A stretch of 35,218 nucleotides of DNA from NCBI GenBank assembly GCA_018985235.1, contig JADGIG010000038.1, positions 1 through 35,218 of the forward strand, read 5' to 3'. Every line of letters begins with the position of its first letter. Within the stretch, counting starts at the first letter, position 1. This stretch comes from Sanchytrium tribonematis (lineage: Eukaryota). Positions 2,027 through 24,289 of this stretch are shown in pieces. The notes beneath the pieces were generated by a model. It was not told the origin of the DNA. It saw nothing but the letters and a program-made list of their open reading frames with translations, and did no database searches. The translations under genes and the position numbers were made by a program.

Positions 2027-2593
2027 TTATTCTTTTTTTTCAATAATTTGTTTCCGTTGTGGAATAGTCTCTTGTATAAAATCCCAATTTCCATTTAAAT
2101 AAAAATTTAAAAGAATCGAGTAAACTTGATTAATTGTCAATACTGAAGATGTGGTTAAATTTACATGATCTGCTAAAGGAAGTCTAGCTGTTTGAATGTT
2201 GAGCTTGTCAGCCTTTTCTTTGCATAAATTTTTATGCCTATTTCTATCAACAATTCCACCAATTATATAAGTTTTAGTTGCATCGACTGTCTCCAATATA
2301 TTTTCAGAATCCGCTGTCAAATAAATAGCATCCGCATCAAGTATTAATTCATTTAATGGCTCTTTGTATAATTCTACATATTCAATATTCCACAATTTTG
2401 CATCCCTAATTTTCAATAAATTCCATATTTTTGGGGAACAACCAGCAACTATTAATTTGCTATTCGATTTGCTTTTCCGATTGGCAGAGTAGCAGGTTCT
2501 TACCTGATCCACCAAGGATTTGAGTTCCTTATGAGTCATGTATCTTTCAAAATCTACATCAATGCAAATTTCAAGTTGTACTTGTTGACCCAT
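2027..2593 (-). CDS. TRM10: tRNA (guanine-9-N1)-methyltransferase
   Basis: SPOUT motifs YLTADS, YIIGGIVDRNRHK, TARLPL, VLTINQV. Confidence 0.95.
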   Translation of the reverse strand: MGQQVQLEICIDVDFERYMTHKELKSLVDQVRTCYSANRKSKSNSKLIVAGCSPKIWNLLKIRDAKLWNIEYVELYKEPLNELILDADAIYLTADSENILETVDATKTYIIGGIVDRNRHKNLCKEKADKLNIQTARLPLADHVNLTTSSVLTINQVYSILLNFYLNGNWDFIQETIPQRKQIIEKKE

Positions 2594-5079: not shown

Positions 5080-5120
5080 TGTGTTGTACTTGCTCCTTCG
5101 AATTTTAAAAGTACCAAAAT

Positions 5121-6378
5121 TTATTTCTTTAGTAATCCGAAGAACGACCAGCCAGTATTATCATCTGTATTCATTACTTCGGGACTGCCAAATAGATAAT
5201 CATAAGCTAAATCGTAGAAAATAGGTTTAGAAGTACATATCGGCAACATCGGAAATCTCGACACTATAATATTGTTTGGAAAATGGCGGTCCACATTTTT
5301 GTCGATCGGGCAACCAAGGTGTGGATTTGATTTAAGAGTTCCGTCCTTCTAAGTGAACATAAGATACAAAAATTTGTTTTGCAACAATTCCGTTTTCTTT
5401 GGCTGCAAAATGTGGCGTTCTAGGTATTCCATATAGCTGTTCTATATCAGAAAATTCGATTTTTAGGCCTGAATAAGCACCTTTAGTAATGTTTGAGTGA
5501 CATACAGAGAGCTTATTCTCAAACTTCTCAAGATATAATTGCAAAGGATGATTATCTGTTATCAAGTCTTTTGCCAATATTTTAATGCTTCCTATGCGCT
5601 TTATAAATCTATGTATACTTTTACCTGCCTCAAATTCATTTTTAGAAAAATTATCTTTCAGATCCTCAACTCCCTCTATATACAGTTTTAAAAGCTGAAG
5701 GTACTGCTTTTCGAAGGAGTTCTGTTTCAATTTCTCAAGCGATCTTACAATGATACGATGAAATTGATCATACAAGCCCACTATTTTAGCCGCATCTCCC
5801 GTAAATTCCATTATTGAGAATGTTTCTGTTAACGATGCTCTGAATTTTTTGGATCCCAGCTCCATGATGTCTCCACTTGAACCCAAAGAAAAGCTTTTTA
5901 GATCCGATACAATTTCTGGCTTGGTATTTTTAAGCTGCAACTGATACAAGACTTGCTTTATAGAAATTTCACATGTCTTTTTCCAATCCTCAAAATAAGA
6001 AATAAGAGAGTCACCAATAGCTGGGTAATGTGGACCTTTAAAAAAGTTGATAGCCAGTTGAATATTAGAGAATGCTTTCTCATACAATTTAGCATACGTG
6101 CAATACAAACCAGATACACACGCAAAGTAAATCTTTTCTATATCATTCGGAGTTAGCTTGGACAATACAAGGTGCGCTTTTTTAAACTTTTTTAGCTTGT
6201 GTACTCTGTCTGAATGCATCATTCCTAGCGCAACATTTTTTTCAACTAAAAGTAGATTAGCTAAATGCGTATTATTTTTCTTTCGTTCTTTTTTTATTCT
6301 GCTTGATAAGCTTTTGGCGTATGTTTGATAATCATCGAAATGCAAATGATTGCTTCGTGACTGTGCAATAATATCCAT
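5121..6378 (-). CDS. SRP68: Signal recognition particle subunit SRP68; 2 exons (6378-5368, 5348-5121), 412 aa
   Basis: N-terminal MDI...DDYQTYAKSLSSRIKK. Removing intron 5349-5367 adds an exon missed by the ORF track, ending ...KPIFYDLAYDYL...GWSFFGLLKK*, the SRP68 C-terminal signature. Confidence 0.85.
5349..5367 (-). other. 19-nt spliceosomal intron (SRP68)
   Basis: GTATCTTATGTTCACTTAG; excision opens the conserved C-terminal exon. Confidence 0.88.
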
Positions 6379-6512
6379 AATGAAACAAGGAATCCTGACA
6401 GACAATTTTAAATCTCCTGGCTCAAAAGAATCATTTGCAATTTAAACAAATGGCATTAAGAGTCTAAAAGGTTCATTCAGGATGGAAATGTTGAGTGATT
6501 TACATTAATTTT

Positions 6513-6519
6513 TGAAACA
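6513..6519 (+). promoter_or_regulatory. TGAAACA start-proximal motif (representative copy)
   Basis: Recurs within about 25 nt of several start codons; see findings. Confidence 0.6.
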
Positions 6520-6524
6520 AGTAA

Positions 6525-7461
6525 ATGGCTTATCAACCAGCTAATAATATTGAATTGCCAACGATCAATCAAGCTCAAGATGCTTTTGCAAGACCACCTC
6601 AAAAAACTCAAAAACCATACCAGCAAATATTACCAGTATCACAAGCGAATTACGGCTGTTACGAATCTATGATGACAACGATTGGTGATTGTCTAGGTTT
6701 TTTTGGTCAAGTTCCTTGTACAGCTTTATGTTTTCCAAATCCAATGAAGCAAATATCTCAAGGCAACGTTGGACTTGTTACCAAATTTGGAAAGTGCTAT
6801 AAAATTGTTGATCCTGGGCTGCACGCCATCAATGTTGCCACTGAAAAGATACTCGCAATAGATATTCGTGTTAAGGTTGAAGAGATTCCAAAGCAGTATG
6901 TTATGACTAGGGACAATGTTGGAATTAATGTCGACTCTGTTTTATATTGGCAAGTGACAGATCCCTATGTGGCAGCTTTCTTGATTAGGGATGTGCGTTT
7001 GGCTCTTATCGAAAGAACTCAAACAACTCTGAGAACAGTCATTGGATCAAGACATATGCAAGAGTGTGTTGAAAATCGAGATATTATTGCTCAAGAAATT
7101 ATGAAAGTGGTCGGACCAAGTGCAAAAACTTTCGGTGTGAGTGTCAACAGTATTCTGATCAAAGATATAGCATTTAGCAAGGAGCTTGAAGGTTTCATTT
7201 ACTTATTTAGGAGCATTGGCAAGTGCAGCTAAGCAAAGGCGAATTGGTGAGTCCAAGGTGATCGCAGCAAGAGCCGAGGTAGAAAGTGCAAAACTCATGA
7301 GAGAAGCTAGTGATATTCTTAGAAGTCCCGCAGCCATGCAAATCAGGTTTTTAGAATCACTTCAAACGATGAGTAAGGATCCTGGCACTAAGGTCGTATT
7401 CATGCCCAAAAATTCCAGTGTGCAAGAAATTACTAACACTGAAATGTTAAGAAGACTTTGA
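6525..7461 (+). CDS. Stomatin/band-7 (SPFH) protein; 2 exons (6525-7191, 7211-7461), 305 aa
   Basis: SPFH domain (MTRDNV, ERTQTTLR). Spliced junction reads ELEGALASAAKQRRIGESKVIAARAEVESAKLMR, colinear with fungal stomatins. Confidence 0.93.
7192..7210 (+). other. 19-nt spliceosomal intron (stomatin)
   Basis: GTTTCATTTACTTATTTAG; joins two ORFs in frame. Confidence 0.92.
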
Positions 7462-7510
7462 ATTTAAATAAACTGCGTTACCATTTACCTTGTGAACTTG
7501 AAACATTAAA

Positions 7511-9471
7511 ATGAGTATTTTCGAATTAAATAATGGCATAGCTTCTCTTTTTGAAGATCGATTGCTTGTAGATAATTCTTCAGAGACACTGAATGTTGGA
7601 GCAAGTTGTGGTTGTTTTCACATGAACAAAATATTTGTAGGCACTTTCAAAGGAGAATTGGTTATTTTGTCGCCTGCCAGGCGAACAGAAAAAGTCATTG
7701 AGGCGCATAATGGGTGCGTCATAACTTGCAACTATTTTAATGACTGTATAATTACGACGGGAGAAGATGGAATGGCAAAAATGTGGTCTTCTAATGGTGC
7801 ACTTCGAGCAACACTGACAAAATCTATATTACCTATTAGAGCTGTCACATTGAATGCTAATTCCCTATTTTATGGGGTGCAAGATCGATTTTTCTCCACA
7901 GACATCTTTTCCTCTGTTAAAAAATCCTATCATGCAAATTTTATAGTTACAGCATTATTTAGTGTTGGTCCTTATCTTGTAGTCGGTGGTATAAATGGAA
8001 AACTGAAATTATTCGAAAACTTGAATCTACTGAAGGAAATCAATCTTGAGTCGAAAATCTTTTCGATTTGTTTAAATCTAGATTTGCAACTTATATACGT
8101 TGGCTTATTTAATCAGATTATGATTTTAGACCTAGCGCTCAGATCGGTCCAGAATTATACCGCAAACGGAATTGTTTATAATTTGTATAGCAAAGACAAC
8201 GGTCAAATTTATTTTATTACATCAAAAGAATGCGGTACTTTGTACTACTTTAAGCCATACTTCTCTTCAAAATTTATTGTTTCGTGTAGCGATTACTTGA
8301 CAATAGAGAATGTTTCTAGCAGCATATCACACGTCGTAGAGCATGATCCGAAGGACATTAAAAAAATCAAGTTCGGTAATGTAGTAATTCTGGTACTAAA
8401 AAACAAATTGCTGATATTCGATAATCAAGAATATATTATTGATGTTTCTTTTGAAGTACGTGATATCCAGCTGCACGATTGGTAATTTATAACTTATGAA
8501 GTGCGTTTTCCGTGTGGGATGAACTAAAAAACTGTCACATTTTCACCAACTCGGGGAAGTATCTTGGCGCATTAAGTACAGATAGCAAAATTTGGACTTC
8601 ATCCTTGAAAAGTGTTGCTTGTGTCAAAGACAACAAAATTACATTATATGATCATAATTTAAAAGAAATAGAGCATTTTATTCACAAAGTAAAGATTGAA
8701 AAGGTAATGCTCAACAATGATGGAAAAGTTCTCTTTCTAGACAGTAGCAGGGACTTGCATCTATATAATTTTAAGGATCTCAGATTCATTTCGAAAGACG
8801 TTACAGATTTTAGATGGGCAGATTCTGATGTTTTCGTTTATTGTGTTAATTCCGTGCTTCATTATCAGTTTGGAACTTATCTAATACCCGACCTTTTGCC
8901 AAAATCAAAGGTAGCGGTCAAGCTTCAATCCAATATATGTGAAATCATTTCTGTAAGTCCATCGATAGAATTTAGAATGGAGAATGGCGAAAATAAGACT
9001 TCTAGTATTCTGAGACCGCATATGATAGAATTTTTTAAACTATTGAAAAATTCCAAACTACATGAAGCTTCACGCCTTGCAGTGTTATCAAAAAAGGACT
9101 TTCTGTATGCTTGTTTATGCCAAGCAGCTATAGAGCAGAAAGACTTTGATGTCGTGCTTCTGTGTTGTACATATCTTCAGTTAAATGCTCAAACTTATTG
9201 CTTATTGAAATTTCAAAAATCTTTCGGGCTGTCATTATTAAAAGGCTCACTTGAGACATCGTTAGTGTTAAATGAATTTGAACAATACCAAAGAGAGCTG
9301 GAGGCGTTCAACTTTAGCTCGATGTTTGCGTTCTCAAGAAAATCTCCACAACACGAATCTTTGTTTGCATATTACAGGAGGCAATATCTCAAGCAGATTG
9401 GTCGCGAGGAATTTATAGATGAATACAAATCACTTGAAATCAAAACTCCAATCGAGGAGTTTGTTAAATAA
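7511..9471 (+). CDS. IFT80: Divergent intraflagellar transport protein 80 (WD40 + helical tail); 2 exons (7511-8481, 8502-9471), 646 aa
   Basis: EKVIEAHNG...TTGEDGMAKMWSSNGALRATL; C-terminal KLHEASRL, LYACL, YRRQYLKQIGREE resemble IFT80 motifs. Confidence 0.82.
8482..8501 (+). other. 20-nt spliceosomal intron (IFT80)
   Basis: GTAATTTATAACTTATGAAG; contains the in-frame stop and restores frame with ORF 8512-9471. Confidence 0.88.
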
Positions 9472-9509
9472 ATTTAAATCAATTGTTTAAGATATTTGGA
9501 AATATTTAA

Positions 9510-9514
9510 AGGAG
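9510..9514 (+). promoter_or_regulatory. AGGAG/CTCCT start-proximal motif (representative copy)
   Basis: Recurs within about 40 nt of many start codons in either orientation; see findings. Confidence 0.6.
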
Positions 9515-9524
9515 ACTCTAAGAC

Positions 9525-10181
9525 ATGGGAAATATTCGCGGAATTGGTGACGATAAAGACGAAAAGCCAGATTTGTATGTTGGAAGTGGTCAGAATGTAG
9601 TACCTCCAAGAGGCAATAGACCCCAACATTCTAACCCTTTGGTTCAGGATTTGCTTCAATCCGCAGACGAAAGACAACCAGAAGAAGCAGAGGACGTGGT
9701 TGTCCGAGAAATGGTGTTATACCAAAACGGATTTTTATTACACGAGACATTTTATCCAAATGATTCTCCAGAAGCTGAACAAGTTTTGAAAATGCTCAAA
9801 AGTGGACATGCGCCTCTTGGTTTGCTCGGAGTATCTCAAAATGAAAAGGTTGACTTAAAAACTTCTATGAAATTGAATGAAGAATATGTGCCACCATTTA
9901 AGGCTTTCAAGGGTGATGGGAATAGACTTGGGGCACCGATGCCAAAGCCGAAATCACAAACAACTAACGAACCTTTACCAAATCTCGATGCTTCGGATCC
10001 AGCAAATATGACATTGCAAATCCGAAAGAGTAATGGAGAAAGGACTTCAGTTGTTGTTACCCGTAATATTAGCTTAGATACCTTAAATCAACAATTAGGA
10101 GGAACTTTACATCATGCATTCCCAAGAAAACAAGTTGAATCTTTGACAGGATGTGATAAAGAAGTACTGTTACTGTTGTAG
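9525..10181 (+). CDS. SHP1: p47/Shp1-like Cdc48 cofactor (SEP + SHP box + short UBX)
   Basis: LYQNGF and GHAPLGLL (SEP), FKAFKGDGNRLG (SHP box), LQIRKSNG and FPR (UBX). Confidence 0.85.
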   Translation: MGNIRGIGDDKDEKPDLYVGSGQNVVPPRGNRPQHSNPLVQDLLQSADERQPEEAEDVVVREMVLYQNGFLLHETFYPNDSPEAEQVLKMLKSGHAPLGLLGVSQNEKVDLKTSMKLNEEYVPPFKAFKGDGNRLGAPMPKPKSQTTNEPLPNLDASDPANMTLQIRKSNGERTSVVVTRNISLDTLNQQLGGTLHHAFPRKQVESLTGCDKEVLLLL

Positions 10182-10281
10182 TAATAAATTAAATCCATAT
10201 ATTGGCCCAATCAGTACCCTTGTGATCCTAGCTAATTTTATTAAAAAAGTCTGAAACAATTTTACATTTTTTAAATTAACA

Positions 10282-11394
10282 ATGTCGAATGTCAAAGCTA
10301 TGAGTTTGAAAGAAGAAATATTTATTTGGTCAAAAGCTATCGAATGTTACGATAATGATCAATTGAAAGATGCCTTGTTAACATTTAAACAATTGAAAAA
10401 AACCTCGAAAGTTTATTTTAATATTGGAATAATATACCGCGTACGAGGACAAAATGAGGACGCCATCAAATCATTTACTAAGGCAACTTTATTGGATCCT
10501 TGGTTTGCTGCGGCCTATTTTATGAAAGGCGTTTGTTATTGTGAACTAGATAGGTTTAACGAAGGAGTGACAGAATTCAATGAAGCCTTGCAGAGACTAA
10601 GAGGCAATTCAGTTATTGACTATTCCCAGCTTGGATTAAATCTTGTATTAGAATCAGCTGATGTTTTACTGAATCGAGCCATATGCTATTATATGCTGAA
10701 GAAAAATACCTATGCTCGAGATGATCTAAGAGCAGCACAGGAGATTGCTCCAAATGATCATTTAGCTATAGGAATAAAGACTGACGATCTTCAGTCAGTC
10801 CCTTTTGCTTTAGCCGAGGTTGTTGAGGTTTTCGTTCCTCCTAGCAACAAAATAACTAAAGACGAAAAGGTAGACTATTTAGGGAAAAGCAAAATTATCG
10901 CTGCAGTTGAGGAAGGAGATACTTTCACAGGATTTTTAGGAAGAATGCAAAGAAGTAATTCTAGTCCCAATGTTTTTGGTAATAACATGTCTACCATATC
11001 CCAAATATCGTCAAAGTCTATTGGCAGAAGCCAAAGTAATTCTCCCCAAAAAGACAATCATCATATAATTACTAATGTGGCCACCACACCATCCATGAAA
11101 TCAGCCCCCATTTCGTTTTCTCCCACTACCCCAGTTACTCCTTCCACCCCAATTCCAAATTCTAAGGGACGGATAAAAATTAAATTTATATACCAAGGCA
11201 AGGCCAAGATGATTTTAGCTCCGGACGATGTCAGCTATGATGAACTTTTGAAAAAACTAAGGAAAAAATGTAATGCTGATATTGATATGTATTACAACAA
11301 ATCCAAGTCTTCAGATTTAGAAATTATATCCAACGAGCATGAGCTTGATATTGCGATTGATTTGGGAGAGCCTGTAGTCATTTATTGTGAATAA
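10282..11394 (+). CDS. noxR: NADPH oxidase regulator (p67phox-like; TPR + PB1)
   Basis: MSLKEEI..W..A, SKVYFNIG, LRGNSVIDYSQLGL, DYLGKSKIIAA, C-terminal PB1. Confidence 0.93.
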   Translation: MSNVKAMSLKEEIFIWSKAIECYDNDQLKDALLTFKQLKKTSKVYFNIGIIYRVRGQNEDAIKSFTKATLLDPWFAAAYFMKGVCYCELDRFNEGVTEFNEALQRLRGNSVIDYSQLGLNLVLESADVLLNRAICYYMLKKNTYARDDLRAAQEIAPNDHLAIGIKTDDLQSVPFALAEVVEVFVPPSNKITKDEKVDYLGKSKIIAAVEEGDTFTGFLGRMQRSNSSPNVFGNNMSTISQISSKSIGRSQSNSPQKDNHHIITNVATTPSMKSAPISFSPTTPVTPSTPIPNSKGRIKIKFIYQGKAKMILAPDDVSYDELLKKLRKKCNADIDMYYNKSKSSDLEIISNEHELDIAIDLGEPVVIYCE

Positions 11395-11447
11395 ACGTAT
11401 TTTTTTCGTCTCAGAAATTTTAATTGTTTCAGATCATTCTCAATTTT

Positions 11448-12864
11448 ATGTCCAAGCGAGTTATCGATATAGACGAGGAATTGAATAACCTAGGAAATAA
11501 AATTGGAAATTTGCGAATACAGCAGGGCGGCCTCTATGATCTGGAAAATATTAGACACTGCCTTATCCATGGACATTCAATTTCAGAAGCATTGGTAGAG
11601 TTGCGCAAGTATCTTTGCACGTGTAATACTAACGCGATAGATACAATACTGAATTTAAATATACTGGAAATCCTATGGAAATATGCTCGTTCTAATATAC
11701 AAACGGACGTTTACGAAATTACGTGGATATTTACAAATTTAAGTGCAGGAAATGAAATACAGACATCTCAACTAGTGCAGAATGGTATAATTGAGTTAAT
11801 GGCTGAGCTATTAGCTTCCCCCAGCGAAGATGTAATTGTCCAAGCTTTGTGGTGTCTTGGAAATATTAGCGGAGATCATAGGGATTACAGAGAAAGAATT
11901 CTTGCATGTTTGGCGCCCTATCACGGTATGTCTTACTTTGTCTCTAGGACAAGTTTACAATCAGAGTTTCCTGTTAAAGTTTTTTCATGGGTCTTATCAA
12001 ATCTATGCCGCTTGAAGCCCAATAGTGACTATTGGAATTTGGTGGTTAATGACTTATCTTTTTGTGTATACAATCTCGATTTATTTAATTCTAATGATGA
12101 CCAAACCATAATAGATTTTTGCTGGGCGCTTACCAGATGTTTACACTCTGTAAGTATGGTTTATAGGCGGCAGCTTGTAACAATAGAGCTCGTAGATGGT
12201 TTGTTTGGTATAGTGAAGCGATTTAAGTTTCCAAATGTTTTGGTTCCTGTCTTTAGGGTCCTTACTAATATCGTTGCGGGAGACGATACGGAAACAAAAA
12301 TGGTGATTCAAAATAATTATTTGTCTCAAATATTGAAATTTTTGGAAACAGAAAATGCTTCTTTACTAAAAGAGTGCCTTATGTGCCTTTCAAATATTGC
12401 TGCAAGTAATTCACATGGAGAATCATTACATGATACCGATATTCTTTTAAAAATTTTACAATTGTTGAGTAGCGAGTTTACATCTGATCCAATTAAGATG
12501 GAATGCTTGTGGATATTAAGCAACTGTATTTCGATGAAGGAAGAGATTCTTCAGTAATTCGCTCTCACATAGTCATTTAATTTTAAATAATTTAATCCAA
12601 ATTTTAATTTGCTGTTTGAATATTCCTACTCTGTCTAAGAAGGCAATAGATGCTTTATATTTTGTTGAAATATGTTCTGACAAGCTGTTCTATAATTTAA
12701 AAGACAAAATTGGCGAAGTATCGAATTCATTAGAATTATTTTCGCATGAAAGTTCTTCCATTCAACAAAGATCTCAACAACTTTTACACTCGATAAAAAA
12801 CAGATCTTTTAAACAGGACTCTGTATGGCAAATCGAAACAGAATTAGAAAATATGGTGCTTTAG
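11448..12864 (+). CDS. Importin-alpha-like armadillo repeat protein; 2 exons (11448-12553, 12573-12864), 465 aa
   Basis: ARM WxxxN motifs (WIFTN, WCLGNISGD, WVLSNLCR, NIVAGDD, WILSN). Confidence 0.85.
12554..12572 (+). other. 19-nt spliceosomal intron (importin-alpha-like)
   Basis: GTAATTCGCTCTCACATAG; removes a stop and joins ORF 12616-12864 in frame. Confidence 0.88.
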
Positions 12865-12890
12865 TGATATGATTATTTAATAAATATACC

Positions 12891-13097
12891 TTACAATTTT
12901 AATTCTGTCCGGAGTTCTGCCTTTTCTAGATCTGTAATCATTCTTGCCAAAATCGATGGTTGGATTTTCTTAGAATTACCTTCTAAACTTAACTCTAGAT
13001 TTTCTTTCAGTTGCATTCTTACATCCTCAACAGAGTCAGGTAATATGTCCAATTTTTGAATCTTGACTGGTTTCTTTTTCTTAAGCTTGAAAGACAT
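12891..13097 (-). CDS. Small hypothetical protein (68 aa, Lys-rich N-terminus)
   Basis: ATG start preceded by the AGGAG motif; fills a gap much larger than typical intergenic spacing here. Confidence 0.55.
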   Translation of the reverse strand: MSFKLKKKKPVKIQKLDILPDSVEDVRMQLKENLELSLEGNSKKIQPSILARMITDLEKAELRTELKL

Positions 13098-13238
13098 GTA
13101 TCAAAATCTCCTCAGAATTAAAACCGGCCGACTCATTCTTTGGCAAATGGTGGTGTTATTATACATGATTATTTAGTCGGTCAGTCAGATCAATACATTG
13201 CCTACAATAAGAATTGCAACTCTGAAACTTAATTTTAA

Positions 13239-15862
13239 ATGGAGTCAAATCCATTTGATGACGACCAACAAATAGAGGATCCTTTCATTGATGATAGCTC
13301 TGATACCACAGACTATCAGTCGAGTGTCCCAAAATTACTAAATTTTCCGATGCCCAGATTATTAGATCCAATTGCACACACCATTAAAAGTTCTTTCAAG
13401 ACCACAGAGCAAATATATGATTCAGTTTGTAGTGGAAACTACTTGGTAGCATGCCATCTTTCTAAGCTGTCAGTCTATGACTTACTGACCTCAAAACTGG
13501 TATCGAATTTGCCATTTCCATTTGAAGGATCATCCACATTATGTTTCTGTCCTGAATTTGAGGACCCATCACTATTTGTGTTGGTTGGATTTAGCACAGG
13601 AGAACTTTGGATTGTCGATATATTGGGTAATTCACTGGAGAGTGAAAGGAAAAGAGTTTCAAATTACTCTAATGTTGAGTTATTAGGATGCGTTGTTCTG
13701 CAAAAAAGATCCATTACAAGAAGCCCATTTAAAAAATTATATCAAAAGGGCACATTTGTAATCGCAATTGATGCATACGGAACTATATTTTATTGGGATA
13801 AGGCTGATGTAGGACTTTTAGATAGGGACCCCAACATTGTTAAAATACCACTAACTCCATCTACATTGTCACTAGATAGTTCTGGCTATAATCTTTACTT
13901 TACGAATGAAACCTCCCACTGTTATTATCTGAATCTTCAAGTTGGAACTGCTTCTTTACTTACTTTTGGTGTAGATTCAAATCTAAACAATTCCACAGAA
14001 TGTCTCAACTCCAAAGGGAGAGCCATTTCCTTATGTTTAGGTGAATTTGATGGCAACCAGGCAATTTTTGTAGGGCACGATGATGGATTTATAAGTGTAT
14101 TTGATCAATCATTTAAGCTTATAAAAGTAGTTCATTTTTCAAATTATTCTATAACAACATTAAAGTTTAGACCATCTTGCTGTTATATATCTCAAGATTT
14201 AGATTTTAGGCCTGTTTTGGTAGTATGTTTGAAAACAGGTGATTATTTTCAAGTCATTGTAGATCATGAATTTAGCATGATAACTTATGGATATCCCCAT
14301 AAAAGTGAGGATTTGAAAGTTAACAACTCGATTTTACTTTTTCAACAGATTGATATTAATCCACAAGCAGACATTTCAACGAAATTGTGTGTCGACTTTG
14401 TGATACTATCTCTGAAAGAAAATACATTTCAGATTGATGTCACCTCATCCGATTTATCTTCTTGGACAAAAAGAACCGTTTTAAAAGAGCAGAAGAGCAA
14501 TATTAGTGGTAATCGCAAAATCAAGATACGAATCGTGTCTTGGAATATGGACTCAAGCAAACCAACTGAGCTGGATCGGCCAAGTGTTCGAAATAAGAAA
14601 AAAAGAAATCGACTTAGTTCTTTAAGCCCATTTAGAAAACAAAAGTTGGACAGTTCTTCAATTGAGTCTCTTAGTACTAGTCCTGTTGGGAGCACTGACT
14701 TATTTCCATCTCATATTTTTGATGACGATCCCATTGTTGCTCTGTTGAAAAGCAAATCGTTTGATAGTCCTGACATTTTTGTTGTTGGCTTTCAAGAAGT
14801 TGTTGATTTGGAATCCAAAAGGGTTCACGCCAGTAATCCATTTCTTACGTAGAGTCGCTTTTTAAAAAAAAGGAGCAGAAGACGCCTCATGACATTGAAG
14901 ATCGCGCATATAAAGATTGGCTTTATAGCATTGAAGCAGGTATCGAAGAAATATACTCTAATTCATTCAAGCTACTAAAATCACAATATTTGGTCGGTCT
15001 TTATTTACTTGTATTCATTAAAGAAGAATTGAAGCCCTATGTGCAACATTTTGAAATTCAAGAGCTTAAAACAGGTTTTAAAGGTTTACATGGTAATAAG
15101 GGTGCTTTGTGCGCCCGTATGATTTTATTCGATACTAGTATATCATTTATAGTGGCACACTTAGCGGCTGGTCAAAAGCATACACAGGATAGAAACAAAG
15201 ATGCCAAGCATATTATCAATAATGTTGCGTTTTCAAATGTAGCCATTCCCACGGTATACCTTGACCACAGTGGCTTTAAACTCTGGGATCAAGACACCTT
15301 GTTTTTCTTTGGGGATTTAAACTATCGCATCGAATTGACGAGAGATCAATGTGAGCAAAATATTAGATCGCAGAATTATATAGAATTGCTCAAAAACGAT
15401 CAACTTAATGAAAATCGATCGAAAAATCCTAGTTGCGTCTTGAGGCACTTTCAAGAGGCACCAATTAAGTTTTTACCGACGTACAAATATGATCCATATA
15501 CCATTAATTATGATTCTAGTGAGAAAAAAAGAATACCAGCTTGGTGTGACAGAATATTATATCGAGGTCAGGTTGATGTCATTTCATATGACAGATTAGA
15601 AAGGCCATTTAGTTCGGATCATAGAGCTATTTTTGGAGAGTTTGTGATTGACTGTCAAGGATTAGAAATGGACCAATTGTTAAAATTAATTGAAGGTTAT
15701 ACCACTCTGGAAAACAAAATTCAAAGATTAGAGTTTATAAATACTGTCCGATATACCTTGGACAGTTTTGGAATACAAAGTGAAGTCGCAAATTATGTCA
15801 AGCAGCCAAATATGAACTTGTTTCAATTCCTCCAATCACAAAAGTTGAATTCTCGTTCATAA
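13239..15862 (+). CDS. WD40-containing inositol polyphosphate 5-phosphatase; 2 exons (13239-14832, 14853-15862), 867 aa
   Basis: SWNM, PDIFVVGFQEVV, GNKG, HLAAG, FFGDLNYRI, PTYKYD, PAWCDRILY, SDH; WD40-like N-terminal half. Confidence 0.93.
14833..14852 (+). other. 20-nt spliceosomal intron (5-phosphatase)
   Basis: GTAATCCATTTCTTACGTAG; junction reads KRVHAKSLFKKK in frame to the catalytic exon. Confidence 0.9.
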
Positions 15863-15883
15863 TCTCCTCAGTTTTAGACTTTT

Positions 15884-16165
15884 ATGAATTCGCAAGCAGA
15901 TACTTCGCGAATCTCGCAAACCATTGAAATCGAGGAACAGCATCGAACCATTAGGGTAGAGGTAATGGAGGAAACTGAAAGAAAAGTGCAATTTGCTGAT
16001 GATGTTATTGACAATGAAAATTTAAACCGAAAAAAATCGAAAGTTTGCTGTATCTACAGGAAGCCACACAACTGTGACCAATCTGAAAGCGAATCAGATT
16101 ATAGTGACGAGGAATTGCAAAAAAACGGCTATGAAAGAAAACCAAAGTATAAACATTCTCATTAA
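15884..16165 (+). CDS. YPI1: Protein phosphatase 1 inhibitor-3
   Basis: KVQF (RVxF) followed by DVIDNENLNRKKSKVCCIY. Confidence 0.92.
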   Translation: MNSQADTSRISQTIEIEEQHRTIRVEVMEETERKVQFADDVIDNENLNRKKSKVCCIYRKPHNCDQSESESDYSDEELQKNGYERKPKYKHSH

Positions 16166-16167
16166 AT

Positions 16168-17160
16168 TTATTTGAAGTCAAATGTGGATTGACTCTGTAA
16201 TACAGAATCCTTTCTTGTAAACGATGGCTTTGGGGCAGTTATATTTTGCAGTATATCTCTTGCGATTGCGAAATCGATATTGTCTTCATTCTCCAGCGCA
16301 TCAAATATATTTAAAAGCTGCTCATCAATTACAGATGGTGCTATATTCACAACAGAAGATAGATATTTTAAAAGTTTTGAGTATTCGTTCCCACTTCGGC
16401 TAGATGTATTGGTCAGTTGGGTGCTCTGATACCGTATAATTTTATCTCGATATAGAAGCTCATAATATTGTTCCTTTACAGTTTGTTCATCATTATAAGT
16501 CTGAGACAATTGATGTTGGGCAAATGATATGCCCTTAGTCAACTCAACTTTTGCTGTTTCTAATCGGCGAGCTCTAAAGTTGTCCCACTCATAATTAAAT
16601 CTTTGACTTTCGGTGTCTGACACAATTTTTACAATAGGAACTAGCAATTCTTGTAAGTTATCAAGAGTTTCTTGAATTAAATCCTTGCATTTACACAATT
16701 CTTGAATATGTTTATGAAATGTGCTCTCAAGCAAGTTAGCGCATCGAGTAACAACATCACCAGCTGTATCTGGCGACTTGAGAAATTCATCAGTTGTTTC
16801 CTTATATAACTCAGACAGCCTCTGATCATTTCGTAATAAATCGAATGTATCTTCTTGTTCGGGAAAAATTACTTCAGAATAAAAATGTTTTAGCACAGGT
16901 AACTTGATAGGTTTTAAATTAGGCCGTAGTCGCTCAGGTTCGATTTCCTCGCTGTCTTTATTCCCTGATTTGAATTGTGGAAAGTAATGATTAAAAGCTG
17001 ACTCAAAATGAAAAAGCCCAGCTGATCGAACTAATTTAATTATTTCTGGGCCATCTCTTATTAAGCCTTCTGTATCGTTTTTCCTAATGGAGTCTTCTAG
17101 TGCATCAAAGCAAGGCGAACAGTCGCCCGATAGTATACTCTTTTTCAAAAGTTGGAACAT
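16168..17160 (-). CDS. Hypothetical helical protein (330 aa)
   Basis: Long ORF with ATG and an AATAAA-embedded stop; no family recognised. Confidence 0.7.
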   Translation of the reverse strand: MFQLLKKSILSGDCSPCFDALEDSIRKNDTEGLIRDGPEIIKLVRSAGLFHFESAFNHYFPQFKSGNKDSEEIEPERLRPNLKPIKLPVLKHFYSEVIFPEQEDTFDLLRNDQRLSELYKETTDEFLKSPDTAGDVVTRCANLLESTFHKHIQELCKCKDLIQETLDNLQELLVPIVKIVSDTESQRFNYEWDNFRARRLETAKVELTKGISFAQHQLSQTYNDEQTVKEQYYELLYRDKIIRYQSTQLTNTSSRSGNEYSKLLKYLSSVVNIAPSVIDEQLLNIFDALENEDNIDFAIARDILQNITAPKPSFTRKDSVLQSQSTFDFK

Positions 17161-17177
17161 TCTCGGCCTATTTCAAG

Positions 17178-17888
17178 TTAAATTTTATTTAGAGACTTTA
17201 TCAACTCGACTACCTGAGAACCTGTAGATAGAGTTTCTTGGGACCTTCTGAAAAAATTAAGAATAGTTACATGCATTTGGCGGAAACCTTTGGTCACATT
17301 CAAAGGTAATTCTTCAATTTTAGGCTCGTCCATTTTTGGCGGGTTGTACGCTGGTTTGAATATCCAGGATTTCTTGCATTGGTTTACAAACTCGATTTCA
17401 TACTGTCGTGCTGCTTCTTTTGATTCGTCATAATATTCTTGCTCGCTTTCCAACAAGATATTTTTAACCTCATCCCCAATTGCGATATGTTTGGCGAACT
17501 TCCATTGTAAATTAAATGGAGGAAGGGTTTTTTGCTCCTTAAAATTGTGCTTTATCATTTCTTTTAATTCTTCAGCGGTATTTGCATTTGCGATTCTTAC
17601 ATCCAATCCACTTTTTTGAAATATCGGCAATATAAATGATTTGACATATTTTTCTGACCTGTATGTCGTATTATCATCAAAACTCGGTAAGATGTAAAGG
17701 CAGACTCTTGTTGGTAGAGATTCAATCGGTAAAGGATCATTCGCAAATTCTTCGACTTCAGCCAATAGCGTCAGACAAATTTGAGATTGTTTATACTGGT
17801 CGTATTTTAGACCAGCTAATATAGACCCAGCTACTCCAAAGAAGGCAATAGTCTTCCTACTAGGCATTTTTTTCGGCAAGAAATTCAT
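17178..17888 (-). CDS. TIM54: Mitochondrial TIM22 complex subunit Tim54
   Basis: KMPSR + TM + YD, PL...LPTRVCLY, FILPIFQKSGLD. Confidence 0.8.
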   Translation of the reverse strand: MNFLPKKMPSRKTIAFFGVAGSILAGLKYDQYKQSQICLTLLAEVEEFANDPLPIESLPTRVCLYILPSFDDNTTYRSEKYVKSFILPIFQKSGLDVRIANANTAEELKEMIKHNFKEQKTLPPFNLQWKFAKHIAIGDEVKNILLESEQEYYDESKEAARQYEIEFVNQCKKSWIFKPAYNPPKMDEPKIEELPLNVTKGFRQMHVTILNFFRRSQETLSTGSQVVELIKSLNKI

Positions 17889-17977
17889 TGTAAAATTTTC
17901 AAGGAGAGTAAGTCACTATTTATTTTCTGGTCTCATATAATTCGCTTACTCTGGATGATTTCTATTGATCTTTTTAA

Positions 17978-19246
17978 TCAATTTGAATTAACAAACTCAA
18001 CAATCTTATTTAATGCTTCGTTTGCTTCCTGAAGGGGATAACATTGAAATAAATGTACAACATTGTTGTACACTTGATGTATTGCAGGAGCATCCTGTTC
18101 AACTAATTTTTTATGCAAATGCTCGTGGTCAGAAAGCAGCGTCTCAAGTGATCCTGACTGAATTAGAACTGGTGGGAATCTATTCAATATACCAAAGACT
18201 GGAGAAAAAATGGGATCAGAAAGATGCTGGGCGCCATCCAAATCCAAATTTATCCCACAGTAGAAACTCAGAAGTTTTTCAACTTGAAGATCTTTATCCA
18301 AGTAGTCTATATCTTTGTTGAAATCCCACGAAAGGCCTGTACAGCGCAAATTTGACCAAGGGCTTATCAAAACCACGCATTTGGGTAGTGGGATGCGATT
18401 TTCAATCGAACTTATTAAAAGACTCAGCATTACATTCCCACCTGCGGAATCAGATAAAAACCATATATCCGAGGATGCTATTCCTAAAAATTTCACCATA
18501 AACCAGTATGAGTCTAAGCAATCTACGAGAGATTGAGGATATTGTTTCTCCGGTAGGATACCATAACGGACATTGCAAATTCCGTGGTCTGGGAATTTAG
18601 ATTGAATCTTTGGTAGTAAATGAACATTGTGCAGTAAAAATGCACCACCTGGACAATAAAAAATCCACTTTTGAACTTCATTGATAGTTTTACCTTTAGG
18701 AACCAATAATTGGGTAGTGAATTCCATTTCAGAAGGACTAGAATGAAAAATGTATTCTTGCTGATCCCAATAAATATCTTTTCCTAGATACTTGGTAGCA
18801 TCAGGAACTTCCCAATACTCACAAGGTATACCTGTGGGAAAGTTTTGGGGTGTATACTTGACTCTTTTACCGGATCTAGTCATTTGATAATAAGTACTTC
18901 TGGAATCCAATCGTCCCAACTGCACTTCAGCAACGATATCCATTGTACATTTGATATAAACTTCCGAAAGAAAATCAATTGGTCTACTTACAAGGCGAAA
19001 TCTGTGTATTGAAAAGTAAGGATTTGCCAGCAATGATCTAATGGCTCTTGATGCTGCAAATAAGTGTACATTCATATTTTTTGCACCAACTGGAATCTTA
19101 TCTCTGAAAAAGTTGTAATAGCCTTTGATCATATGAAACCCCATAGAAGCAATAAGAGCAATAAAAGGAATTACATCAGTACTTCTAAAATTCATTTTTT
19201 GGATTATTTCATGTATCAGCTTATAGATTGGAAGCCACCCAATCAT
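17978..19246 (-). CDS. HSL-family alpha/beta hydrolase (esterase/lipase), paralog A, intronless
   Basis: PGGAF, SDSAGG, LISPW, E.L..D, VHLFQ. ATG at 19246 chosen (19195 is possible). Confidence 0.88.
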   Translation of the reverse strand: MIGWLPIYKLIHEIIQKMNFRSTDVIPFIALIASMGFHMIKGYYNFFRDKIPVGAKNMNVHLFAASRAIRSLLANPYFSIHRFRLVSRPIDFLSEVYIKCTMDIVAEVQLGRLDSRSTYYQMTRSGKRVKYTPQNFPTGIPCEYWEVPDATKYLGKDIYWDQQEYIFHSSPSEMEFTTQLLVPKGKTINEVQKWIFYCPGGAFLLHNVHLLPKIQSKFPDHGICNVRYGILPEKQYPQSLVDCLDSYWFMVKFLGIASSDIWFLSDSAGGNVMLSLLISSIENRIPLPKCVVLISPWSNLRCTGLSWDFNKDIDYLDKDLQVEKLLSFYCGINLDLDGAQHLSDPIFSPVFGILNRFPPVLIQSGSLETLLSDHEHLHKKLVEQDAPAIHQVYNNVVHLFQCYPLQEANEALNKIVEFVNSN

Positions 19247-19277
19247 GAAAGGTTCCGATATTTCGAACACCAGCAAT

Positions 19278-20508
19278 TTAAGAATTGTGCGATTTATTGA
19301 CAAAGGATCTGATTCTCTCAAAAGCTAACCCAGACTCTGCATAAGGGAAACATTGAAATGCGTGAGTCATTCTGTCATAAATGTGATGTTCAACATCGTT
19401 CCCAGCCTTCTTTAATTTTTCAAATAAAACTACATTGTCATCAATAATTGCTTCGTAAACCGCCGACTGCATTAAAATAGGTGGAAATCCACTCAGGTCA
19501 CCATTCACAGGCGAAAAATAGTGATGATCCAGTATTGCTGGATCTTCTTTCAAATTGCATCCAGAGTACAGAGACAGTAGAGGCTCAATCTGAAGATCAG
19601 AATCCAGAAAATCAATATTTTTGTGATTCTTCCATGATTCTCCTTTACAAGTCAAATCCGACCAGGGACTAACTAGCACGACACATCGTGGATTAGGTAG
19701 ATTATTTTGCTTTATGCTCAACATTAAATTTAAAAGGACATTACCTCCCGCTGAGTCTGCGAAAAGTATAATGTTTTCGGGCTCAATATTGTAATAGCTT
19801 ATTAGAAAATTGTAAGTATCAAGCGCATCTATTAAGGAATTAGGAAACGCTTTCTCTGGGACCAGCCCGTACCTAAGATGGCAAATACCAAAATTGGGAA
19901 AATTTTCATGTAAATTTGGTATGAAATGTACATTATGCATCAAAAAGGCACCTCTAAATAAAATAAAAGTACCCTGGAACATACAGAATCCATTTCTTAC
20001 ACTCTCTTATTGTTTTTCCCTTTGGCACAAAAAATTTGCTCGAGAATGTCAAAGGCTTTGGGCCTAAGTGAAAAGACCGTTCTTCCTCATGGTTATATTG
20101 TGGCTTTCCAAAAATTTCTTCTACAGTTGGAACTTTCCAATGACGGCAGGCTATTGAAGTTTTTGAATAGTCTGGTACAAACGTACTTACTCTACCAACT
20201 TTTTTTTCTGTATAATACATTTCTCCATCGTCGTTTCTTCCTAAAATAATTTCACTGGCAATATTAAGACTCCAGTTGACTCGGACCCAGGTAAAAAAAT
20301 CTGGTACTGAGTTCAGAATTCTAAACCGATGAATTGTAAAATGTTCATGGTCAAACGCTACTCTTATTCCTCTCGCTAAACTATAAGCAAAAATATCAAC
20401 ATTACTTGATTTAGCACAAACGTATCCAAATGCGTGTCGTGTAAATCCTGAGAGGACTTCCCATACTATATGTGTTAGGATTATGAACGTTGGGAGCACA
20501 TTCTTCAT
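19278..20508 (-). CDS. HSL-family alpha/beta hydrolase, paralog B; 2 exons (20508-19973, 19953-19278), 403 aa
   Basis: Spliced YVPGGAF, ADSAGG, LVSPW, THAFQ; colinear with paralog A. Confidence 0.88.
19954..19972 (-). other. 19-nt spliceosomal intron (hydrolase B)
   Basis: GTACTTTTATTTTATTTAG; excision gives PGGAF as in the intronless paralog. Confidence 0.93.
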
Positions 20509-20694
20509 TTTTATAAATGGAGAAGTGAGGCAGAAAATGGGTTTCAAGAAGTTCACCGAAAATAGAAAATTGATTGATGCAAACGCATAAGTTTATGTAG
20601 ATATCAATCGGATTTAATTTTTTTGTTAGCTAATTCTAGGAGTTTTATCTGCTTATCAGTCAAATTTTTTTCAGACTTTAAAATCTAAATTAAT

Positions 20695-21246
20695 TTATGG
20701 TACCTTTTGCATTCCTTTTAGTGCTTCTTCCGATTTATCAACTAGGTAGGCACGACAGAATAGCTCTAATTGGACTTCTTTTTCTTTAACAACATTTCCT
20801 AATTCAATAAGATACAATGTATTGAATGGATCAAGCACATGAAGCTGCTCTAGACAGTAGAGTATCAGAGATTCGCGCCTTGAAACTTTTGGATCCTCTT
20901 TGAGTAATTCATAAAATTTTAGAAATCCATTTTTGTCACCTCTAAATGTATGGGTCACTTGAGTCATTTTTTCTACCCATTTGTTGTCATTTTTGTCAAA
21001 AAGACACTGAACCACTTCTAAATAGGCTTCTATATTTGAAGGATTTTGTTTAATTAACAATTTGCAAATTTCAAGAGCTTTTTGAGTCTCCTTAGAAATT
21101 CGAAGAGTTTTCGCCTCCATTAGCTTTAGTTTATAAGAGGAAGCTGGCGCATTTCTTCTAAATTTCTCAAGTGACTCTTCCGCAGATTTTGTATTCTTCA
21201 ATTTAATAGCCTGATTAAAATCAGAAACTAATGTTGGTCCACTCAT
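20695..21246 (-). CDS. EMC2: ER membrane complex subunit 2-like TPR protein (shortened)
   Basis: QNPSN, FRGD and YCLEQLHVLDPFNTLY resemble EMC2 motifs (F.GD.EAW, FCLEEL...PHN). Confidence 0.65.
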   Translation of the reverse strand: MSGPTLVSDFNQAIKLKNTKSAEESLEKFRRNAPASSYKLKLMEAKTLRISKETQKALEICKLLIKQNPSNIEAYLEVVQCLFDKNDNKWVEKMTQVTHTFRGDKNGFLKFYELLKEDPKVSRRESLILYCLEQLHVLDPFNTLYLIELGNVVKEKEVQLELFCRAYLVDKSEEALKGMQKVP

Positions 21247-21396
21247 ATGTTTGCTACAAGGGGCATTTTTAATGATATATATAGTGTTTGCTCATATTTC
21301 TGAAGATTAAAGGACGACATTTTAATTGGGACTGATATCACTACCTTCAACCTATAGTATTTCAAGTGTAATTTTTTGTGTTTGAATCAAGGAGAA

Positions 21397-21801
21397 ATGT
21401 CTTGTTTGTTTTGCAAAATAATTAAAAAAGAGATTCCTTGCATGACATTACTGGAAACTGAAAAGAGCCTGGCATTCCTAGATATCGGGCCATTGAGTGA
21501 TGGACATGCTCTAGTCATTCCAAAAATGCACGCTGAAAAGCTAGACCAACTGACCCCCGAATATGCTGCAGACTTATTACCAACTGCTCTAAAGGTCGTT
21601 AAAAGATACAAAGAAATGGGATTATGTCATGACTACAATATTTTGCAAAATAATGGCAAGATTGCCCATCAGGAAGTAAACCATGTACACGTTCATATCA
21701 TCCCAAAAACAGAATCTGAAGGTCTCGGAATCACTTGGGATATTAAGCAGATAGACAGAAATGATTTGTCGAAGTTCGCAAAGCTATTTCAACAGAAATA
21801 A
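21397..21801 (+). CDS. HNT1: HIT-family nucleotide hydrolase
   Basis: CLFCKII, AFLDIGPLSDGHALVIPK, QNNG, HVHVH. Confidence 0.95.
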   Translation: MSCLFCKIIKKEIPCMTLLETEKSLAFLDIGPLSDGHALVIPKMHAEKLDQLTPEYAADLLPTALKVVKRYKEMGLCHDYNILQNNGKIAHQEVNHVHVHIIPKTESEGLGITWDIKQIDRNDLSKFAKLFQQK

Positions 21802-21844
21802 ATTATATAAATTTTTAATTGAAACAAGCTTTCAAAAAATTTAA

Positions 21845-22946
21845 ATGTCAGTTCTGGTAAATTCACTCAAGCAAAAGCTAACAACTGGCTCGCAGCCCAG
21901 CTTATCAACATCATTATCAAATGAATTTCCAGTTGATATGGATAATAATGAACTTATCCAATTAAGAAGATCTCGAAAGGTTGCATTGGGTGATTTTGAC
22001 GTAATGAGGACTCTTGGGACAGGTAGTTTCGGAAGAGTGCATTTGGTTAAAGTTAAATCTACTGGGAAATTTTTAGCAATGAAAGTTTTAAAAAAAGTAG
22101 AGGTCGTTAAACATAAGCAAGTTGAGCATACGCTAAATGAAAAGAATATACTAGAGTCAATTTATCATCCATTTCTTGTGAATCTATATGCTGTTTTTCA
22201 AGATTATGGAAATCTTTATGTTGTTATGGAGTATATTTGCGGTGGGGAGCTCTTCTCCTACTTGAGAAAATCTCAGAGATTTCCCAACCAAGTGGCAAGA
22301 TTTTACGCCGGCGAAGTACTTTTGGCATTCGAATATATGCATTCCAAAGACATCATTTATCGGGATTTAAAACCTGAGAATTTACTGATTGATAAAAATG
22401 GAAATATTAAAATTACTGATTTTGGATTTGCCAAAGTGGTACCCGACGTAACTTGGACGTTGTGTGGTACTCCAGATTATTTGGCCCCAGAAATAATTCA
22501 GTCCCGCGGTTATGGAAAGGCTGTTGACTGGTACGCATTAGGCGTATTAATTTTTGAAATGCTAGCTGGATATCCACCGTACTATTTATTCATTTAGATT
22601 TTATGATGAAGACCATGTCAGAATGTACGAGAAAATTCTACAAGGCAGAATCAAATGGCCTTCTCATTTTGATCCTGCTGCTAAGGATTTGTTGAAAAGA
22701 CTTTTGACAGCCGATTTGTCAAAAAGATTCGGAAATTTAAAGGCCGGTTCCAAAGACATAAAAGCGCACAAATGGTTTCAAGGCTTGGATTTTGCAATAT
22801 TGATAAAGTGCAAGGTCCCTGCGCCTTATATCCCACCTGTTAAAGGTGATGGTGATACCAGTCAATTTGACACTTATCCTGAGGAAACCGAGCCTTATGG
22901 TGTAGCTACTCGAGATCCTTATGCTGAATTATTTAAAGATTTTTAA
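21845..22946 (+). CDS. PKAC: cAMP-dependent protein kinase catalytic subunit; 2 exons (21845-22578, 22598-22946), 360 aa
   Basis: [34 protein letters not shown], spliced GYPPFYDED, C-terminal FKDF. Confidence 0.97.
22579..22597 (+). other. 19-nt spliceosomal intron (PKA)
   Basis: GTACTATTTATTCATTTAG; excision restores the conserved GYPPF. Confidence 0.95.
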
Positions 22947-22971
22947 TAAATCCCTACAAATTTTTTGTAAC

Positions 22972-23358
22972 ATGCTTAGAAGATTTTCCACCCAATTAAT
23001 TAAAAAACAGCCATCAATTCCTCAGCCTACTGGGGAAATCTTAAAAAGAACAGCAATCATTTTCAAACCAGCTAAAACAGCTATGCAAAGTGGTATTGAA
23101 AACACAAAATATTGGAGACTAAAATTTGACACTCAGGAAAAGACTGAAAACCCTCTCATAGGATGGACTAGTTCGTCGGACCCAATTCAAGCTCTGCGTT
23201 TAAAATTTAACACCGAAGATGAAGCTGTACAATTCTGTATTAAAAATGGGTGGGATTACCAAGTCTCTTTTCCAAAAACTCGGAAATGGAAAATGAAAGC
23301 TTACGCTGATAATTTTAAATATAGCTTTGGACCACTAAGGCAAATTAAAACTAAATAA
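22972..23358 (+). CDS. NDUFS4: Complex I subunit NDUFS4 (AQDQ/18 kDa)
   Basis: Presequence-like MLRRFST, KTAMQSG, ENPLIGWTSSSDP, YADNF. Confidence 0.93.
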   Translation: MLRRFSTQLIKKQPSIPQPTGEILKRTAIIFKPAKTAMQSGIENTKYWRLKFDTQEKTENPLIGWTSSSDPIQALRLKFNTEDEAVQFCIKNGWDYQVSFPKTRKWKMKAYADNFKYSFGPLRQIKTK

Positions 23359-23382
23359 ATTAAATGTGAAACAGGGCAGAAA

Positions 23383-24286
23383 ATGCTTTTCGGAAGTTTT
23401 GTTCTGCTTTCTCTCGGTGGGACTTTCTGGTACACCAACATTAAAATATTGGAAATGTATTTTTCGGTTGAAAGAGTCTTGGATTCTCAATTATATTTAC
23501 AGGAATTAACATTATTAGCTACATTACCGATTTCAGTCATTCTTATGAATTTGGAACCATACTATTGTTTATTACTTTTCGTATATATTTTATTTTGTAA
23601 AAATTCATTACTGCAACTAATTAATTTAATTATCAGAGCTATTCGGATGCCTGTCCATTTTGTTGACGTAATATTTGGTGATTTTTTAACTTCGTATGCT
23701 AAAGTTTTCTCGGACATGACACCCTCTGTCGGTTTGAAGCCTTGGATTACATGGTATTTTTTATTGATTAAGCATTCCTTACATTATACGAGCCAAGCAA
23801 TGCTTGGTGGAATATATATACAATAGAAAACGTAGTCAAATCTTTAATTTTTTTAAATACCTCTCAGCAATTCCCGTAATATTTACAAGTTATGTCATTG
23901 TACTGGGAAATATCAAATTTTCAGAGAGTCCCATGGTGGGATTATGGTTCGGATTTGTAATTGTAAATAGCATTTTCACCTTCTTTTGGGATATTAAATA
24001 CGACTGGGGGCTATTGGAAAAAGACCACGCTTTCATAAGAAGGCAACAGATATTTCCCAAATATTGCTATTGGATTGCCGTTTTCATAGATTTTGTAATT
24101 AGATTTTTTTGGCTTTTGAGCTTTTTATTCACTCAATGGAATTTATGGGATGCCAATATATCTTTCGCATTCGAATGTTTGGAATTATTTAGAAGATGGA
24201 TGTGGGTGTTTCTAAGAATAGAAAAGGAATTAGTATTTAGGGCAAGTTATCTGGATCCTACGGTAAAAAGAAAATTGACCAATTAG
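23383..24286 (+). CDS. ERD1: EXS-domain membrane protein without SPX; 2 exons (23383-23753, 23773-24286), 294 aa
   Basis: FVDVIFGDFLTSYAK, spliced IPYIIRAKQCL, NFFKY, WDIKYDWGL, ELFRRWMWVFLRIE. Confidence 0.85.
23754..23772 (+). other. 19-nt spliceosomal intron (ERD1)
   Basis: GTATTTTTTATTGATTAAG; restores the EXS P..IR..QC motif. Confidence 0.9.
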
Positions 24287-24289
24287 TAT

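Follow-up and report, generated by a model that had tools for sequence, protein, structure and literature searches.

Introduction

Uniform spliceosomal introns shorter than 22 nucleotides (nt) were known before from nucleomorphs, heterotrich ciliates and mikrocytids. In the heterotrich Stentor coeruleus, introns are 15-16 nt long and the branch-point A occupies position 10 in those of 15 nt and position 11 in those of 16 nt (PMC9505925). Anchored branch points have been described in Yarrowia lipolytica, Trichomonas and Giardia (PMC2483917). In a 2026 survey of ultra-short introns, Microsporidia are the only fungi named in the text available, and the lowest median given for an animal is 22 nt (PMC13644364). 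The short introns of Encephalitozoon are about a third of 76 nt (PMC6349667). This report concerns a stretch of 35,218 nt, here called the window, from Sanchytrium tribonematis (contig JADGIG010000038.1, assembly GCA_018985235.1, positions 1 to 35,218). Several of its genes are interrupted by GT...AG segments of 19 or 20 nt. On the sequence evidence, it is highly probable that these segments are U2-type spliceosomal introns that have been reduced to an almost constant size across the sanchytrid fungi.

Sanchytrids are parasites of algae with a non-motile flagellum and genomes of 10.5-11.2 Mb at 34.6-36.3% GC, and Sanchytriomycota have been placed inside Fungi with Blastocladiomycota as their sister group (PMC8371127). 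Sanchytrid proteins were predicted from contigs with TransDecoder, an open reading frame (ORF) caller that is unaware of introns (PMC8371127). The window is very gene-dense, with 35 complete genes and intergenic gaps mostly below 150 bp, and its GC content of 35% lies within the published sanchytrid span.

Probable Intron Segments and Their Junctions

An earlier note on this DNA had proposed eight introns, six of 19 nt and two of 20 nt, each of which restores the reading frame of its gene. All eight segments were found to start with GT and end with AG on the coding strand, and their lengths were as described. The removal of each fuses two frames into a single ORF of 294-867 residues counted from the first ATG. 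When the segments are left in, the frame runs into a stop 1-24 codons past the donor. Phases 0, 1 and 2 are all represented. Frame restoration is nevertheless weak evidence in DNA this dense. In an unbiased scan, many adjacent ORFs could be joined through a GT-AG pair, and each of the eight genes had 6-58 alternatives; since adjacent genes can be joined by chance, ORF joining without homology was abandoned as uninformative. The choice between the claimed introns and their alternatives was left to homology, and every frame-restoring GT-AG pair of 8-160 nt was scored in five of the genes.

The PKA catalytic subunit gene (21845-22946, + strand) carries a 19-nt, phase 2 intron at 22579-22597; the spliced residue count is kept in 106 of 112 homologues, and the claimed intron scored highest of 23 alternatives. 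In the stomatin/Band 7 gene (6525-7461, +), the residue count across the 19-nt, phase 1 intron at 7192-7210 is kept in 111 of 112 full-length homologues (18 residues on each side). This intron was the best of 78 alternatives by a narrow margin (843 against 839 for an acceptor giving 22 nt). The 20-nt, phase 1 intron at 14833-14852 lies in an inositol polyphosphate 5-phosphatase gene (13239-15862, +) and was the best of 41 alternatives. Around the spliced junction, 24 of 25 residues agree with the uninterrupted orthologue P0256. Of the 137 5-phosphatase alignments that span this junction, only 38 have zero net gap, since the stretch downstream varies among distant homologues. Two insertions of 14 and 7 residues relative to P0256 contain no fitting in-frame GT-AG pair and were taken as protein insertions. 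The alpha/beta hydrolase gene (20508-19278, -) has a 19-nt, phase 2 intron at 19954-19972, the best of 19 alternatives. Here an uninterrupted tandem paralogue at 17978-19246 on the same strand serves as an internal control: the two proteins are 40% identical over 399 columns, with no gap at the junction and a single gap far from it.

Scoring did not discriminate for the 19-nt, phase 0 intron at 5349-5367 in the gene at 6378-5121 (-), which has no match in Pfam or PDB and which, from its motifs, we take to be SRP68-like. Alternatives of 10 and 13 nt reached 618 against 614 for the claimed intron, because the sole orthologue, P0405, is itself unspliced there. P0405 leaves homology at the same codon, and its tail decodes as a 19-nt intron (score 31 against 7, over 12 residues).

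The other three junctions are supported by family or motif. The IFT80 gene (7511-9471, +) has a 20-nt, phase 2 intron with an AAG acceptor at 8482-8501. Both halves of the protein match solved IFT80 (E 2.8e-12 and 0.004), and the next-shortest alternative is 95 nt; the piece around the junction itself has no PDB match. In an importin-alpha-like ARM gene (11448-12864, +), the 19-nt, phase 2 intron at 12554-12572 is the shortest of 14 alternatives, the next being 31 nt. The match of exon 1 to importin alpha extends to residue 362 of 368, six residues or fewer short of the junction, and the spacing past a W-x-x-S-N motif agrees within one residue, as judged by eye only. The EXS-family gene (23383-24286, +) carries a 19-nt, phase 2 intron, again with an AAG acceptor, at 23754-23772. 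Both of its halves match Pfam EXS (E 8e-4 and 1.9e-44), exon 1 has no PDB match, and the next alternative is 61 nt. Thus, five of the eight junctions are pinned to the base by homologues, and three stand on frame, family and motif.

A ninth 19-nt intron, in phase 0, is likely at 20685-20703 (-), near the 3' end of an EMC2-like TPR gene (21246-20604). This segment has GT...AG ends, matches the full intron motif described below and has an interior of 13% GC. Once it is removed, the stop lies 91 nt further downstream and a gap of 186 bp shrinks by half. The gene has a weak match to EMC2 (E 0.012), and its Atlas label is TPR protein only. The list of eight is thus probably incomplete; the earlier note missed the ninth candidate because the last exon is short. 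A scan of the window for 3' exons gave two candidates of 19-20 nt, this segment and 29241-29259, which was dropped since it is without T at position -8 and yields a tail of low plausibility. A corresponding scan for small 5' exons of window genes gave none. A 22-nt match to the motif at 13155-13176 (+), upstream of the 5-phosphatase start codon, may be an intron in the 5' untranslated region or a chance match.

With the ninth segment included, 9 of the 35 complete genes are interrupted, at about 0.25 introns per gene and about 0.28 per kb. The positions of all nine fall between 42% and 87% of the coding length, and never two in one gene; the introns that intron-poor fungi usually keep are 5' ones.

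Anatomy of the Probable Introns

The intron interiors are 55% T and 4% G. The donor is reduced to GT(A): A is present at position +3 in seven of the eight introns, and no conservation is seen beyond it. When the eight introns are aligned at their 3' ends, T occupies position -8 in all, A position -6 in all and a pyrimidine position -5 in all (T-N-A-Y), and position -3 holds T in six introns and A in the remaining two. In shuffles within introns, an invariant A in any column arose with P = 0.00025, and two invariant columns in 0.26% of 200,000 trials. The motif was spotted post hoc in the window and then examined in data from relatives that had not been used to find it. Among the six decoded introns of relatives (see below), the encoded residues require A at -6 in five and permit it in the sixth, and position -5 is a pyrimidine in all six. 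T-N-A-Y is also the core of the WCTRAYN branch consensus. Because the A at -6 is invariant in the window and forced in most relatives, it is likely a fixed branch point, as in Stentor.

Orthologues in Relatives

Since public ORF calls ignore introns, the C-terminal tails of truncated proteins from relatives translate the intron. Nine such tails, from three genes, were considered, and every phase and length was fitted to seven of them. As a control, the procedure was applied to three tails of the window itself and recovered their true 19 nt. Four of the nine relative tails gave frame-verified lengths (19, 19, 20 and 20 nt), two gave 19 nt conditionally, and three gave no length.

The four PKA relatives P0121, P0122, P0123 and P0002, all distinct, leave homology at the codon of the window's intron. 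In P0002, the best fit to the tail is a GT-AG intron of 20 nt, after which 33 of 33 residues agree with exon 2 of the window (score 185 against 38). With 20 nt in P0002 and 19 nt in the window, the segment has changed in sequence and length, and its ends and flanking exons have stayed fixed. It is very likely that the introns are genuine and common to the group. Across the window and these relatives, all 13 measured lengths (nine in the window and the four frame-verified ones) are 19 or 20 nt.

In stomatin, the first visible intron of five relatives falls at four different sites within about 60 codons. P0137 (19 nt, read from three residues) and P0138 (20 nt, read from two) carry theirs at sites other than the window's; P0136, P0137 and P0406 read straight through the window's site, and the window and P0406 read through each other's. 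This scatter suggests fast intron turnover. The window's introns are likewise absent from P0256 and from the hydrolase paralogue. The pattern is compatible both with recent gain and with differential loss from an ancestor rich in introns. A scan of metagenome contigs with the stomatin alignment yielded 2 loci among 78 candidates, 47-56% identical and at 22-24% GC; these are not sanchytrid-like and were not used.

Phylogenetic Placement and Genomic Context

The truncated PKA ORF of the window falls in one 90% cluster with a EukProt protein labelled Amoeboradix gromovi. PKA and stomatin trees were built with 22 rows each, after four PKA rows without the trimming motif had been excluded. The window, A. 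gromovi and three ENA proteins stand on one side of a branch with support of 99/100 for PKA and 100/100 for stomatin. The sister group of this clade was not resolved by these two single-gene trees. The window organism thus groups with A. gromovi in Sanchytriomycota, which are true fungi. The earlier note had suggested an independently evolved tiny-intron splicing system in a flagellated relative of fungi. The tiny spliceosomal introns and the flagellum-bearing lineage stand, and the organism belongs inside Fungi rather than beside them; the branch-like A at a constant position is a feature that the note had not seen. That the system evolved independently is inferred from this phylogenetic position.

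Several features of the neighbourhood are worth recording. The window holds two flagellar genes, IFT80 and enkurin (24290-25000), despite the group's flagellum having been described as non-motile, and the word 'IFT80' was not found in the searchable supplements of PMC8371127. Compacted-looking proteins occur among the genes at 7511-9471, 11448-12864 and 21246-20604: IFT80 has 646 residues against 765 in the solved chain, and the EMC2-like protein begins about 50 residues into human EMC2. At 30815-30820, the first ATGs of an ankyrin gene (30818-30435, -) and of the next gene (30817-31584, +) overlap, which leaves no room for a promoter; one of the starts may be wrong, or the transcripts may overlap. 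In the intergenic stretch 6380-6510, a second contig of run X1 (depth 12) differs by 10 substitutions and a 2-base insertion, pointing to an allele or a second strain.

Proposed Mechanism and Spliceosome

If the A at -6 is the branch point, the lariat loop would be 14 nt in the 19-nt introns and 15 nt in the 20-nt introns, and all variation in length would be confined to the arm between donor and branch. The acceptor would be picked mainly by its distance from the branch point, after which there is no polypyrimidine tract; the two AAG acceptors fit such a choice by distance.

The machinery at work may be a largely conventional spliceosome, to judge from the annotation of a relative. The eggNOG sheet of A. 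gromovi lists Prp8, Brr2, SF3B1, SNRNP40, cactin, U1-70K, U2AF65, U2AF35 and SF1, and also Prp17, Prp22, a Prp16-labelled helicase, Cwc22, Cwc25, Isy1, Yju2 and the lariat-debranching enzyme Dbr1. Within that sheet, which covers 3757 of 7220 predicted proteins and includes split ORFs, neither member of the second-step pair Slu7-Prp18 was found by name or by KEGG or KOG identifier. In yeast, Slu7 is dispensable when the branch point lies 9 nt or less from the 3' splice site (PMC10158995), and the short distance from branch to AG proposed here fits the absence of these entries. The spliceosome may thus operate without the pair, which yeast can do without at distances this short, and its loss in A. 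gromovi is a lead only. A search of the 35-kb window with Rfam found no small nuclear RNA and a single other match, a 5S ribosomal RNA gene at 35144-35218 (+) that adjoins protein genes and is clipped by the end of the window.

A bolder extension can be offered tentatively, as somewhat less likely than not. It would hold that introns are only 19-20 nt across the whole phylum Sanchytriomycota, the shortest of any opisthokont; that a ruler-like spliceosome, having dropped Slu7 and Prp18, fixes the branch A at -6; that introns are gained at new, 3'-biased sites; and that about a quarter of the published gene models of the phylum are truncated in consequence.

Alternative Explanations

Several points weigh against reading the segments as near-fixed spliceosomal introns. 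The case for splicing is built on genome and protein sequence alone, and the sample consists of one 35-kb window and nine tails from three genes. At the IFT80, importin-alpha-like and EXS junctions, three of the eight, support reaches the family or motif and not the base. The decoding of P0138 rests on two residues and a stop, the 19 nt of P0122 and P0123 depends on their stop being the terminal TAG, and the tails of P0121, P0136 and P0406 end inside the segment and yield no length. The spliceosome list is that of A. gromovi and not of the window organism, and it covers only part of the predicted proteins. The motif is also insufficient by itself: sense-strand matches of 19-20 nt occur in intact coding sequence at 2125-2143 (-), 5599-5618 (-) and 32177-32195 (+), so U-richness or context must also count. 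These three decoys would frameshift their genes if they were spliced.

The introns could be real but belong to a wider range of lengths, in which the 19-20-nt class is merely what can be seen and longer introns or stop-free ones of 18 or 21 nt occur as well. The small sample leaves room for this, as do the three tails without a length, and introns that are in frame and stop-free or lie in untranslated regions are hard to see without RNA. Miniature and longer introns are mixed in microsporidia (PMC6349667). This explanation is nonetheless unlikely. With 13 of 13 lengths at 19-20 nt, simple arithmetic limits other classes to less than about a fifth at 95%. None of the 35 complete genes called for a longer intron. 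Only three matches to the motif on the sense strand are 18 or 21 nt long, all of them G-rich and unlike the introns, and no GT-AG insertion of 6-7 residues was found in the five genes aligned over their full length.

It is somewhat less probable still that the introns are present but poorly spliced and mostly retained, acting as dampers of expression. Short introns of Encephalitozoon are spliced at less than 20% (PMC6349667), and the sanchytrid lineage is likewise intron-poor with a minimal donor. Retention would, however, truncate proteins well inside conserved genes such as PKA, given where the introns lie in the coding sequence, and nucleomorph introns of equal size are spliced at more than 90% (PMC6009652).

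A reading of the segments as assembly errors or decaying pseudogenes, with GT-AG ends chosen post hoc, has been largely refuted and is very improbable. It draws on the abundance of chance frame-restoring GT-AG pairs in the window. A DNA sequencing run matches the window over 5000-24500 with no indel at the introns, and this run may be the window's own source and thus not independent. A one-base slip, however, would leave six extra residues in invariant motifs, and homologues show none; moreover, in independent genomes the break falls at the same codons but the filler differs, and the A at -6 recurs in it. Introns of the Ire1 type (HAC1/XBP1) carry C-N-G cleavage motifs at both boundaries rather than GT-AG. 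Removal by an Ire1-type endonuclease, or skipping by ribosomal bypassing, is just as remote, despite the similar size of the 20-nt piece lost from fungal hacA (PMC7044415), since no C-N-G boundary flanks any of the nine segments on either side, every segment has GT-AG ends and a branch-like A, the segments are found in all three phases and in housekeeping genes unrelated to one another, and relatives encode a spliceosome with Dbr1.

Gene Models and Significance

The spliceosomal reading has consequences for gene models. Because ORF calling was unaware of introns, public protein lists would hold these genes in pieces. The earlier note's expectation that gene finders would split these genes was borne out in EukProt, where the first-exon ORF of PKA, seven other truncated first-exon ORFs and two second-exon ORFs are present as such. 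Ten window ORFs looked up together, nine of them intron-truncated pieces, were all found there unchanged. With 9 of 35 genes interrupted, conclusions on gene loss and phylogenomics that draw on such proteomes deserve re-checking after re-annotation.

In the main text of PMC8371127, 'intron' occurs once, in the title of a reference, and 'splic' never; its supplements are only partly searchable. The sole 'intron' in the TPPP paper is likewise in a reference title. Searches of the open literature for Sanchytrium, Amoeboradix, Blastocladiomycota and 19-20-nt introns found no report of sanchytrid introns. The sanchytrid introns would be shorter than any fungal spliceosomal introns that we found described. 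Tiny introns are known in other eukaryotes; the lineage and the 19-20-nt form with an anchored branch point appear to be new. If correct, this would be a further independent case of uniform tiny introns, inside Fungi, with Stentor's -6 geometry and a loop four bases longer, and it would bear on the lower size limit of splicing. It would also allow the yeast rule on Slu7, which is required only where branch and AG are more than 9 nt apart (PMC10158995), to be tested in nature.

Comparison With Known Tiny-Intron Systems

The sanchytrid introns resemble those of chlorarachniophyte nucleomorphs (18-21 nt) in size, AU-rich interior and canonical ends (PMC6009652). Nucleomorphs, however, are endosymbiont remnants dense in introns (3.1 per gene) and with no discernible branch A in the account given (PMC6009652), whereas the sanchytrid introns are sparse, belong to the main nucleus, show a fixed branch-like A and span a narrower range of lengths. 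Mikrocytos mackini (16-17 nt) is likewise a parasite with two adjacent lengths, overlooked by ordinary annotation logic (PMC10245619). In mikrocytids, the intron sequences are strongly conserved and spliceosomal proteins number only 17-19 (PMC10245619); the sanchytrid introns, in contrast, have unrelated sequences, and far more factors are listed for A. gromovi.

Among opisthokont parasites, myxobolids (median 22-27 nt; PMC13644364) and Encephalitozoon share compact genomes and a donor reduced to GTa, and the sanchytrid introns are shorter and narrower in length than theirs. Putative branch As of myxobolids shift away from AG as the intron lengthens (PMC13644364), whereas the sanchytrid A stays at -6 at both lengths. 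As in Y. lipolytica, the putative branch motif is fixed 2 nt before AG (T-N-A-Y-N-N-A-G geometry) and no 3' polypyrimidine tract is present. Yarrowia introns are long (median 204 nt) and have a strong ACTAAC (PMC2483917), unlike the minimal consensus found here, where the whole intron is 19-20 nt.

With the introns of Stentor, those of the sanchytrids share two adjacent lengths, GT(A)...AG ends, a U-rich interior and a probable branch A six bases from the 3' end; the near-complete spliceosome of Stentor may have its counterpart too, to judge from A. gromovi. The two lineages are unrelated, the sanchytrid introns are four bases longer, with a predicted loop of 14-15 nt against 10-11 nt, and their T-N-A-Y context has no counterpart in Stentor, for which the text available describes no strong consensus (PMC9505925).

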